This document shows, one piece after another, positions 18,294-21,782 of a stretch of 21,783 bases of DNA (position 1 is its first letter; each line of letters starts with the position of its first letter). Under the pieces are notes generated by a model. The model was not told the origin of the DNA. It was given only the letters and a program-made list of their open reading frames with translations, and did no database searches. Origin of the DNA: a virus; UHGV virus genome UHGV-0017033; one strand, 5' to 3'. The translations under genes were made by a program, and so were the position numbers.

Positions 18294-20297
18294 ATGACAG
18301 ACATTACAGCCAATGTTGTGGTAAGCATGCCTTCGCAACTCTTCACTATGGCTCGTTCTTTTAAAGCGGTTGCCAATGGCAAAATTTATATCGGTAAAAT
18401 TGACACTGACCCTGTAAATCCTGAAAACCAGATTCAGGTTTATGTGGAGAACGAAGACGGCTCTCACGTTCCTGTATCGCAACCAATCATCATTAACGCC
18501 GCTGGTTACCCTGTATATAACGGACAGATTGCCAAATTCGTAACTGTGCAAGGCCATTCTATGGCTGTTTATGATGCATATGGTGCGCAGCAGTTTTATT
18601 TTCCTAATGTGCTGAAGTATGATCCTGATCAGTTATCTATAAAACTATCAAGTAATATTGGATACAAATACATTGGAATGGTAGAGAGCGCTAACTCCCT
18701 TAAAGATATACAAGGAATGTCGATATCTGATAAATTATATTTAAAATCATACGTATCCGGACTCGAACTTGGTGGTGGGTTTGTTGTAGCTGTAGACAAG
18801 TCAATTGCAGTTGATAACGTAATGGTTTTAGAAGGTAACGGTGTAAATTGGAAGAGAATAAACCCAAGCCTTGAGTTTTCTGTATATGACGCTGGTTACA
18901 GCGGCGCTGGGGATATTGCATTATTTATTAATAAAATAAACTCTCTAGGTTATGATTGCGTTGTTCCATGTAGTGGAGAATTCTCGTCTTTAATTGATAT
19001 TGATTTCGCGAAGGGTGGGTTAAGAGGAACGAATAAATGCGTTTTAACTGAGATTAATGGGATATCAGGTGATTATGCAATTAGGTTAAGCAGCTCTAAT
19101 ATTTCTTATGATAATAGGGATGAAATAAATGCAACATCAATTTTAGATGGCATATCTTTTAAGATGCTAGGATCTAAAAAGATTTTACTTGGAGGTATTG
19201 GCGCTGGTGAATTATCAGAGTTAAGAATAAGTAATTCTTCATTCATATCATCTGCTGGAATTGAGTTTCTTGATAATTCATATAGAATTTTATTTGACAA
19301 GGTAACAATATCAAGATGTCTAAACAACACAATTATATTTAATTCTCCATCAAACTCAGGCGAGGTAATGACATTTAATAATTGTTGGGTTGTTGATAAT
19401 GGAGGTCCATTGACAATTAGAAATGGTCAATTTATTTTTAACTGTTGCTCTATGCCAGCAGGTAAGAAAGAAGGTTATTTTGATTCTACTGTTTTTATTG
19501 AAGATAACGCAACCGTTGTTTACTCAAGTGGAAATATTGAGTTTCAGCCAGGTCAAAGCTTTGTTGCGTTCTCTTCATCTGGAAGCACAAGAATAAGCAT
19601 TAAAGATACAACGCTACTTACTCCCTCTGGATATAGTTCAGTTCCGTTTGTTGTAAATGATGATTCAGTACTTTCATTAACAAATTGCTCATTGCCTTTA
19701 TTTGACCAAATGGATTTGGCGACAGGATCAGCAACTAGACAGGTAGTTGGAGGTAATAGTAAAAAAATAATGTCATATGGATGCTATCCACGATCTGGAT
19801 TTATAACAACTCAGTGGGATAAAGGGAACATAGTTAGTCCATACATAAATTCGCTATCAAATGGAAGTGGACAGTTTTTAAACTACTCTAACTGGAGCCT
19901 TCAACAAACTGGTTCAGGTGTTGTTACAGCAGGAACGGATTCTGATGTTCCAAATGATATTATGTTTTCCAGGTCTTTGTATGTAGCAATACCATCTATA
20001 GGAGCATCTGCAAAATTTTATCAGGAGTGCTCAGACTGCTCACCAGGACGATATTTCCAGTTAGGTTTTTGGGCTAAGAATCAAGTGACAACAATCTCTG
20101 GTATTGAGTTTTTTGATAAAGAAGGGAACTCTGTTCAGGGAAAAGCAACATTTACAATTCCACTAGGCTCCACATGGAATTTCTACGCATTAATAGATAT
20201 TGTTCCTCCTGGAGCAAGCAAAGTTAGGATTGATTTTGATGTTTCCGGTGAAGCAGGCTCTCTTCATTTGCATAATGTTATTTATGGGCTGATTTGA
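18294..20297 (+). CDS. Tailspike protein: conserved P22/Sf6-type head-binding N-terminal domain fused to a divergent, AT-rich receptor-binding body
   Basis: N-terminal ~112 aa ([43 protein letters not shown]...VLKYDPDQ) match the conserved head-binding domain of P22-like tailspikes. Beyond about nt 18630 the DNA becomes visibly AT-rich and the protein no longer resembles P22 gp9 as recalled. 667 aa. Confidence 0.85.
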
Positions 20298-20388
20298 AGA
20301 TTTCACATCTAATGTGACCAAACTTAGACAAAACAAAGCCTTGTCTGGATTGCAAAGCTTTGTACTATCCGATAGTGGTTAAGGTTGG

Positions 20389-21546
20389 TCACTCCACCTT
20401 TTCATCAATCCAATCCGCCCACCATTGCATCATTTCTCTGCGCTTTTCTAGATACTGAGCATGGTTGTAAATCCCACGCACAGATCCGCCGTTGGCATGT
20501 GCCAGTTGCACTTCAATAGCGTCAGCAGGCCATTCGTGCTCGTTCATAATTGTGCTGAATTCATGCCTGAATCCGTGACCGCTTTCCAGACCCTCATAGC
20601 CGATTTGTTTGATCACAAGTAGCACCGCGTTCTCGCAGATTGGCTTCTTCTTATCGTTGCGTCCGGCAAAAACAAACTCTGATACTGGTTTGGTGATGGA
20701 GCTTAGCGTAGTGAGAAGTTCAACCACCTGGTCTGACATCGGGACCACATGAATTTTGCGTCCCTTCATCACACTGGCGTCGATGGTGATAATCCTGTTT
20801 TCAAAATCGACGTTCTTCCATAGCATGGAACGAAGCTCTTTCGTTCTTAGGGCTGTGTAGCGTAAAACTTTGGTCGCAATGAGCGATACGATGCTTCCTG
20901 AAAATGTTGCCAGTGCTTTGTTGAATGCAGGGATCTGGTCTGCAGGAAGAAACGGGAAGTTCTTCTTGCGGTATCCTTTCATGGCGTCAGCAAGGTCAGG
21001 TGCCGGGTTATATTTAGCCCTGCCGGTGACAATAGCGTAACGGAAAACCTCGCCGCATCTTCTGCGGGCTTTATTGGCTCGTTCCATTGCACCGCGATCT
21101 TCAAATCTGCGGATTACTTCCAGCAGTTGCATCGGCTCAATATCCTGAATTTCAAGGCCGCCGATGATAGGTAAAATGTCGTCATCAAACATTTTTGCAA
21201 GTTCAGTCGCATACCCTACTGACCATACTTGCTTCTTGTGCTCGTACCATTCCTTGTAAATCGCACTAAAGGAATTGTTGTTAGACGAAGCCTTTTTCGC
21301 CTTTACCGGATCGATGCCAACCGAGATGTCTTTCCTCGCAGTCCATGCCTTATCCCTTGCCTCCTGCAAAGTCATTAGCGGATATTTTCCTACGGTCAGG
21401 ATTTTCTCCTTACCGTCAATCTTGTAGCGAAGCTGCCATACCTTTTTCCCGGATACAGGGACATAAAGGTACAGGCCATTACCATCGAGAAGGCGGTATG
21501 GTTTTTCTTTCGGCTTTGCTGCTTCAATCTGCTTAACGGTGAGCAT
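20389..21546 (-). CDS. int: Tyrosine site-specific integrase (argW-associated IntS/Sf6-type)
   Basis: Translation from the ATG at 21546 (MLTVKQIEAAKPKEKPYRLLDGNGLYLYVPVSGKKVWQLRY...) has an integrase N-terminal arm-binding domain and a C-terminal catalytic region with HGFRHEF and a downstream RGIY-type tyrosine motif. Same strand as, and directly downstream of, tRNA-Arg. The track ORF extends to a GTG at 21582. Confidence 0.9.
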   Translation of the reverse strand: MLTVKQIEAAKPKEKPYRLLDGNGLYLYVPVSGKKVWQLRYKIDGKEKILTVGKYPLMTLQEARDKAWTARKDISVGIDPVKAKKASSNNNSFSAIYKEWYEHKKQVWSVGYATELAKMFDDDILPIIGGLEIQDIEPMQLLEVIRRFEDRGAMERANKARRRCGEVFRYAIVTGRAKYNPAPDLADAMKGYRKKNFPFLPADQIPAFNKALATFSGSIVSLIATKVLRYTALRTKELRSMLWKNVDFENRIITIDASVMKGRKIHVVPMSDQVVELLTTLSSITKPVSEFVFAGRNDKKKPICENAVLLVIKQIGYEGLESGHGFRHEFSTIMNEHEWPADAIEVQLAHANGGSVRGIYNHAQYLEKRREMMQWWADWIDEKVE

Positions 21547-21707: not shown

Positions 21708-21782
21708 TGGTGTCCCCTGCAGGAATCGAACCTGCAATTAGCCCTTAGGAGGGGCTCGTTATATCCATTTAACTAAGAGGAC
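21708..21782 (-). tRNA. argW: tRNA-Arg (anticodon CCU), complete 75-nt gene with encoded CCA; argW-type phage attachment target
   Basis: Minus-strand sequence GTCCTCTTAGTTAAATGGATATAACGAGCCCCTCCTAAGGGCTAATTGCAGGTTCGATTCCTGCAGGGGACACCA folds as a cloverleaf (acceptor GTCCTCT/AGGGGAC, anticodon stem with CU-CCT-AA loop, T-loop GGTTCGATTCC) and matches E. coli argW as I recall it. Confidence 0.93.

Follow-up and report, generated by a model that had tools for sequence, protein, structure and literature searches.

A conserved integrase flank with a probable int terminator bounds an optional cargo slot, empty here, in a P22-like Escherichia coli prophage

The closest described counterpart of the junction analysed here is found in phage HK620, whose record (AF335538, 38289..23; annotation of Clark et al. 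2001) places an element right after the integrase gene that GenBank labels 'terminator for prophage excision transcript; XIS'. A promoter-side segment and a wzy-like 'O-antigen modification protein' gene follow this element, so that the gene lies between tailspike and int; HK620 is ruled out as a cassette-less relative by this occupant of its slot. In the E. coli K-12 prophage CPS-53 (KpLE1) the order is argW-intS-gtrA(yfdG)-gtrB(yfdH)-gtrS(yfdI), with ~70 nt of gtrA-upstream sequence ahead of the gtr operon and without an adjacent intact tailspike. The genes gtrA, gtrB and gtrS occupy the same position in LR-21-1 and phage HF4s, and Sf6 carries oac there. A first-pass annotation of the DNA studied here had placed O-antigen genes between tailspike and int in relatives, oac of Sf6 among them, and these records agree with it.

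Two further argW/IntS P22-like viruses, Kapi1 and Dewey, were both isolated as phages; in each the tailspike converges on int across a short gap (171 bp and 239 bp, respectively) that lacks a recognised conversion gene and holds a tiny hypothetical ORF. Kapi1 is a temperate phage in whose genome its authors recognised no seroconversion gene; it is reported to alter the O-antigen of its host, an effect for which none of the genes tested accounts, and neither overexpression nor deletion of the small ORF in its slot affected LPS (PMC8787464). The 171-bp gap of Kapi1 (locus L092, 2419-2589) is annotated with a 34-aa ORF.

We analysed a stretch of 21,783 nt, virus genome UHGV-0017033, hereafter the window, in which a tailspike gene and an integrase gene converge with their stop codons 91 bp apart (spacer 20298-20388). 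This distance, already given by the first-pass annotation, was borne out by the ORF listing of the window and by the RefSeq annotation of E. coli ACN001, which has an identical junction with the same 91-bp gap. The principal features of the region are as follows.

18294..20297, plus strand: tailspike gene, 667 aa, from its ORF; the P22-type head-binding domain is conserved and the receptor-binding part exchangeable
20298..20311, no strand assigned: 14 bp private to this tailspike lineage; int-linked homology elsewhere starts at ~20312
20312..20388, minus strand: conserved IntS 3' flank, from genome comparison; the int-proximal half of the int-to-conversion-gene intergenic region
20389..21546, minus strand: IntS-type tyrosine integrase, 385 aa, as in RefSeq for identical genomes; the ORF reaches 21582
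21708..21782, minus strand: tRNA-Arg(CCU) gene argW, the prophage attachment site, on the 5' side of int, from ARAGORN

Residues 1-113 of the tailspike correspond to Pfam Head_binding, and its PHROG is tail protein / tail spike; the integrase has the Pfam domains Arm-DNA-bind_3, Phage_int_M and Phage_integrase. The window also contains a P22-like (Lederbergvirus-type) late operon encoding large terminase, portal, scaffold and coat, followed among the late genes by a gp10-like head-closure protein, a tail needle, ejection proteins, an Ant antirepressor and the P22-head-binding tailspike. Because argW lies just past the start of the integrase gene, the window represents the end nearest to int of a P22-like E. 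coli prophage sitting at argW, with the same argW/int layout as K-12 CPS-53 and ACN001. The notion of an att site at the tailspike-int junction did not hold: the HK620 and Sf6 records put the attP core and the arm repeats inside hkaB / gene 17, upstream of int or within it, and an attP in the spacer is ruled out by these annotations together with the position of argW on the other side of int. With attP upstream of int, the junction is internal to the phage genome.

The junction is 96-100% identical in ACN001 and 13 other complete genomes. The ACN001 prophage (locus L097, 16952-18227) is defective, with a truncated portal gene fused beside nin-region genes. In the window the terminase, portal and coat genes are intact; the junction is thus found in both intact-looking and decayed prophages.

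Genome comparison assigned most of the spacer to the integrase side. The 77-bp block 20312-20388 adjoins intS, at ~92% identity, in ~1,950 of 5,426 complete E. coli genomes, among them K-12. These genomes have a median of one such place each, with 3 as the maximum, and all places listed carry the annotation intS. Among phage records, HZ41, HK633, HK620, N7 and others match the window from 20312-20353 onward; Kapi1 and Dewey, whose spacers are longer, become nearly identical to the window only within int. The block forms the first ~77 nt of the intS-yfdG(gtrA) spacer in K-12 and LR-21-1, including a hairpin described below, and it opens the HK620 region that leads from int to the O-antigen modification gene. 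The alignment to K-12 and HK620 that had been proposed for this junction therefore found common sequence in the int-proximal ~77 nt, while the distal ~70 nt are absent from the window. Across thousands of E. coli prophages the block goes with intS irrespective of what comes next, and here it is cut ~14 bp from the tailspike stop. We consider it very probable that the spacer forms the conserved 3' terminus of the IntS module and lies in an empty cargo ('moron') slot; the block would then be the 3' UTR of the int transcription unit.

The absence of conversion genes that had been noted here is confirmed, as the 91-bp spacer has no ORF, and tblastn with gtrA, gtrB, gtrS, oac, the HK620 gene and an acyltransferase gave no match in the spacer-bearing loci L004, L035 and L049. 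To place this absence among relatives, we classified the content downstream of int, over 3 kb, in 80 IMG/VR loci encoding the closest IntS relatives.

28 of 80 loci: tailspike directly converging on int, with stops 63-228 nt apart and tailspikes of 573-819 aa
11 of 80 loci: gtrA-gtrB downstream of int
5 of 80 loci: acyltransferase-type genes downstream of int
1 of 80 loci: HK620-type modification gene downstream of int
2 of 80 loci: truncated gtrA (62 of 120 aa) abutting the tailspike

In the remaining loci the reference conversion proteins had no match within 3 kb. The spacer of the window recurs in two of the 28 loci with direct convergence, and most of the 28 keep the hairpin. Among complete genomes, the K-12-type intS-gtrA junction is present in only 538 of the ~2,060 E. 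coli genomes that have the intS 3' end. Direct convergence had been presented as exceptional; the 28 loci, with Kapi1 and Dewey, show it to be common instead. Relatives that are intact and without a conversion gene in this position do exist, then, in essentially the same arrangement, although not with the identical spacer sequence. Since the slot is filled in some relatives and empty in many, the 91-bp gap is ordinary.

On the tailspike side, residues 116-667 (18639-20297) share 70% identity with a 765-aa tail protein encoded by a prophage in E. coli APEC17, an unrelated, non-P22-like element beside yfgI. The last ~190 aa are nearly identical between the two proteins and the homology stops exactly at the stop codon; a search for 3' flanking sequence in common with the tail-gene relatives in APEC17 and strain E7 found none. 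A mosaic junction lies at ~20310-20316. In the 14 private base pairs (20298..20311) there is a weak 6-bp hairpin, TCACAT/ATGTGA. From these comparisons the receptor-binding module of the tailspike appears to have been exchanged, with the stop codon as the boundary. Downstream of the related tail gene, APEC17 has an acyltransferase family gene and E7 does not.

How the slot came to be empty can be read in two ways. The spacer had been suggested to be a deletion scar, in which a cassette (gtrABC or an acyltransferase) would have been lost with its promoter region, the 77 nt next to int joined to the tailspike, and the repeats left as incidental. The spacer does align with the first ~77 of the ~150 nt that precede gtrA in K-12 and LR-21-1, or the modification gene in HK620, and it is the promoter-side distal ~70 nt that are missing; this truncated int-to-conversion-gene region fits cassette loss or replacement, as does the acyltransferase gene that follows the related receptor-binding module in APEC17. 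The window, however, has no remnant of any conversion gene or its promoter region, the spacer is identical in all 14 genomes with the junction and in strain ZY22049, where an int 3' remnant follows it, and no genome was seen to combine this tailspike with a cassette. Recombinational replacement of a whole tailspike-plus-cargo cassette would moreover look the same, and a scar would be compatible with a terminator in the retained block. We therefore hold a simple deletion scar to be a possible, though somewhat unlikely, account of the spacer.

Other lineages show where such events can end. Endpoints lie 63-87 nt past the int stop, just after the hairpin; at ~100-140 nt past it in L007 and L082, which keep varying lengths of gtrA-upstream sequence without gtrA; and inside gtrA in L024 and L077. 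In the last two, the interval 143-339 nt downstream of the int stop holds the truncated gtrA (62 of 120 aa), ~140 nt from the tailspike stop; these loci are true gtr-cassette deletion scars in other prophages. The scatter of endpoints points to deletions or cassette replacements that recurred in the slot, and the junction of the window may well descend from one such event. Its cassette would have been lost either through exchange of the receptor-binding cassette or by deletion, with the endpoint just past the hairpin.

In ZY22049 (locus L087, 3997-4394) a ~55-nt remnant of the 3' end of int comes after the tailspike-spacer unit, and beyond it ~250 bp of unrelated sequence lead to a different intS allele. 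The additional 307 bp are ruled out as a cassette remnant, being the int 3' remnant plus the different int allele. The arrangement is a recombination footprint inside int, so that the tailspike-spacer unit must itself have been moved by recombination.

The spacer had also been described as dense in inverted repeats, and formal repeat finding recovered all four of the repeats listed, at their coordinates. Two of them are longer than first noted: an outer repeat, I1, contains the 8-bp pair, and a central one, I2, contains the 10-bp palindrome CAAAGCTTTG, which is the right arm of the I2 hairpin. The arms of I1 are 13 nt long and 12/13 complementary (20314-20326 with 20380-20392), and those of I2 are 11 nt long and 10/11 complementary (20333-20343 with 20353-20363).

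20314..20326, no strand assigned: left arm of I1, GTGACCAAACTTA, from repeat finding; invariant in the 4 genomes aligned
20325..20332, minus strand: U-rich tail UUUUGUCU on int-sense RNA, immediately 3' of I2, read from the sequence
20333..20363, minus strand: hairpin I2, with arms ACAAAGCUUUG / CAAGGCUUUGU on int-sense RNA; putative intrinsic terminator stem
20380..20392, no strand assigned: right arm of I1, TAAGGTTGGTCAC, overlapping the int stop codon (TGA, 20391-20389)

Against 2,000 dinucleotide shuffles the density of repeats is above chance. The spacer has five perfect inverted repeats of at least 6 nt, compared with 1.05 +/- 0.99 in the shuffles, four of which (4/2000) reached five; a 13-nt arm with one mismatch was reached in 3/2000. 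The predicted fold has an energy of -34.1 kcal/mol on the int-sense strand (z = -4.2) and of -28.6 kcal/mol on the plus strand (z = -2.6).

We read I2 and the U-run behind it as a putative factor-independent terminator of int, homologous to the HK620 element; on homology, position and the predicted stem and U-run, we rate this somewhat better than even. The HK620 feature 38289..23 aligns with 20332-20363 of the window, that is, with I2. In both, the element comes right after IntS genes that are ~95% identical, its arms are the same pair of CAAAGCYTTG copies and a U-rich int-sense sequence follows the hairpin; the window differs in a C.A-to-U.G change in the stem, a loop side one base shorter and the additional outer stem I1. 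What lies beyond differs too, since the tailspike stop stands 14 bp past the block in the window, in place of the promoter-side segment and modification gene of HK620. The comparison with K-12 CPS-53 is similar: attachment site, integrase family and hairpin are shared, and the window differs in having an intact late operon and no gtr genes.

The stem of I2 begins 25 nt past the int stop and consists of 11 bp, of which 4 are G-C pairs and 1 is G.U. A predicted energy of -13.0 kcal/mol on the int-sense strand compares with -10.4 kcal/mol on the plus strand. On int-sense RNA 5 of the 8 nt after the stem are U; on the plus strand ACUAUCCG follows I2 and does not amount to a U-rich tract. The first-pass statement that no T-run follows the repeats therefore stands for the plus strand and fails for the int-sense strand, on which TTTTGTCT comes directly after the hairpin. 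The conclusion drawn from it, that the repeats are not classic terminators, does not stand for I2, given its int-sense U-run and its match to a terminator annotated in HK620. The central hairpin with UUUUGUCU would end int transcripts on the int-sense strand; in combination with the outer stem it may, in addition, hinder the convergent late (tailspike) transcript or make its 3' end more stable.

Promoter and terminator scans made no call within the spacer, and the late transcript, on the plus strand, has no canonical terminator there by the same scan. The I2 hairpin escaped a simple terminator scan in the window, owing to its 9-nt loop, and in K-12 as well; the U-run of the relatives is interrupted. 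The sole terminator-like call near the junction, at 20729-20747 on the plus strand, TGGTCTGACATCGGGACCA then CATGAATTTT, lies 340 nt into int in antisense and would face read-through from the late operon; the number of terminator-scan calls, this one included, is within chance expectation.

The hairpin is kept in most of 58 distinct int flanks. Flanks of the L018/L071 type have a hairpin of another sequence in the same place, GCAAGGCCTG/CAGGCCTTGC, and in the L013 flank a perfect 14-bp stem is restored. Covariation across 50 distinct int flanks gave the pairing no significant support: 83.0% of cells were paired, compared with 82.8% in column shuffles, the covariation score of the hairpin was reached by 70/500 shuffles, and RNAalifold returned no consensus structure for these flanks. 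Stem pairing in the relatives amounts to 91.5% antisense to int versus 83.7% int-sense (G.U cells, 70 versus 16), an antisense advantage that rests mostly on two column pairs; the strand preference of the hairpin is thus inconsistent between the window and its relatives. In L040, L025 and L085 (~7 loci; first 40 nt past the int stop) a deletion between the direct CAAAGCYTTG copies has halved the hairpin, so that some lineages can do without the element or, at the least, can lose it.

These patterns bear on a protein-binding site, another of the functions first proposed for the repeats. The two CAAAGCYTTG near-palindromes, ~20 bp or two helical turns apart, would form an operator-like site bound by a dimeric protein of phage or host, and the RNA hairpin would be a by-product. 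We keep this reading because each arm is near-palindromic and the copies are so spaced; the arms repeat each other, indeed, in both direct and inverted orientation, the sequence is conserved without compensatory change and the pairing shows no consistent strand preference. The different-sequence hairpin of L018/L071 and the perfect stem of L013, however, speak for structure over sequence, variants missing one copy by deletion exist, no known binding motif was recognised and there is no candidate protein. Such an operator seems to us very improbable, and a terminator in I2 remains the preferred reading of the hairpin.

The outer stem I1 behaves differently. Its arms are 12/13 complementary in the window, 7/13 in the consensus of relatives and 10/13 in strain TW14425, which carries the same tailspike; approximately five substitutions separate I1 from the int-flank consensus, all of which raise complementarity, a statistically unusual outcome. 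This pattern is reminiscent of templated quasi-palindrome correction. I1 is specific to this lineage, with templated (quasi-palindrome) mutation or chance as its possible origin. As 13-nt terminal inverted repeats around a 53-nt core, the I1 arms could also suggest the remnant of a MITE or IS end; this is effectively refuted, since the spacer occurs as a single copy that is linked to intS without exception, its inner part and the int flanks of K-12 and HK620 are colinear, and the arms depart from the consensus by point substitutions only.

In lambda, the sib/tI element is a terminator hairpin downstream of int that is extendable in read-through RNA only, and an extension of this kind is predicted in the window. 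The 3' arm of I1 comes immediately past the U-run, so a long duplex would be possible solely in read-through RNA. A sib-like retroregulator would join I1, pairing of the U-tract and I2 into one long duplex of the read-through int RNA, which RNase III would cut and so destabilise, whereas terminated int transcripts would end before the 3' arm and stay stable. Both the int-sense minimum-free-energy fold, a rod of ~28 pairs with the energy given above, and the rarity in shuffles of a one-mismatch arm are consistent with such a device. Its likeness to lambda does not extend to sequence similarity or to genome layout: attP does not lie between the element and int, integration therefore does not part the two, and the classical logic of retroregulation is inapplicable. 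Rfam covariance models matched the spacer at chance level only (E >= 1.7, far below gathering scores). Since integration leaves the element joined to int, and relatives do not conserve the extension, we rate sib-like control as most improbable. It is likewise very improbable, if less extremely so, that the outer stem acts through a read-through-only duplex in either of two ways, as sib-like RNase III control of int or as a barrier, lacking a U-tract, to the late transcript. Were this the case, the outer stem would have evolved after cassette loss, once two transcription units faced each other directly.

Taken together, the observation made in the first pass is correct and the arrangement is one already known, the counterpart of the annotated HK620 feature and of the K-12 intS flank. 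We put at roughly 0.6 the probability of the whole statement, namely that the spacer is the conserved int flank with a probable int terminator, in an optional slot left empty here by exchange or deletion. For argW/IntS P22-like prophages it means that the slot between int and tailspike is an optional cargo space bounded by a conserved block on the int side and, its cargo being optional, that a missing gtr or oac is no sign of prophage degeneration. The hairpin block 25-57 nt past the intS stop is a landmark that delimits tailspike-plus-conversion cassettes; its importance beyond annotation is small, and it is usable when serotype conversion or host range is to be predicted.
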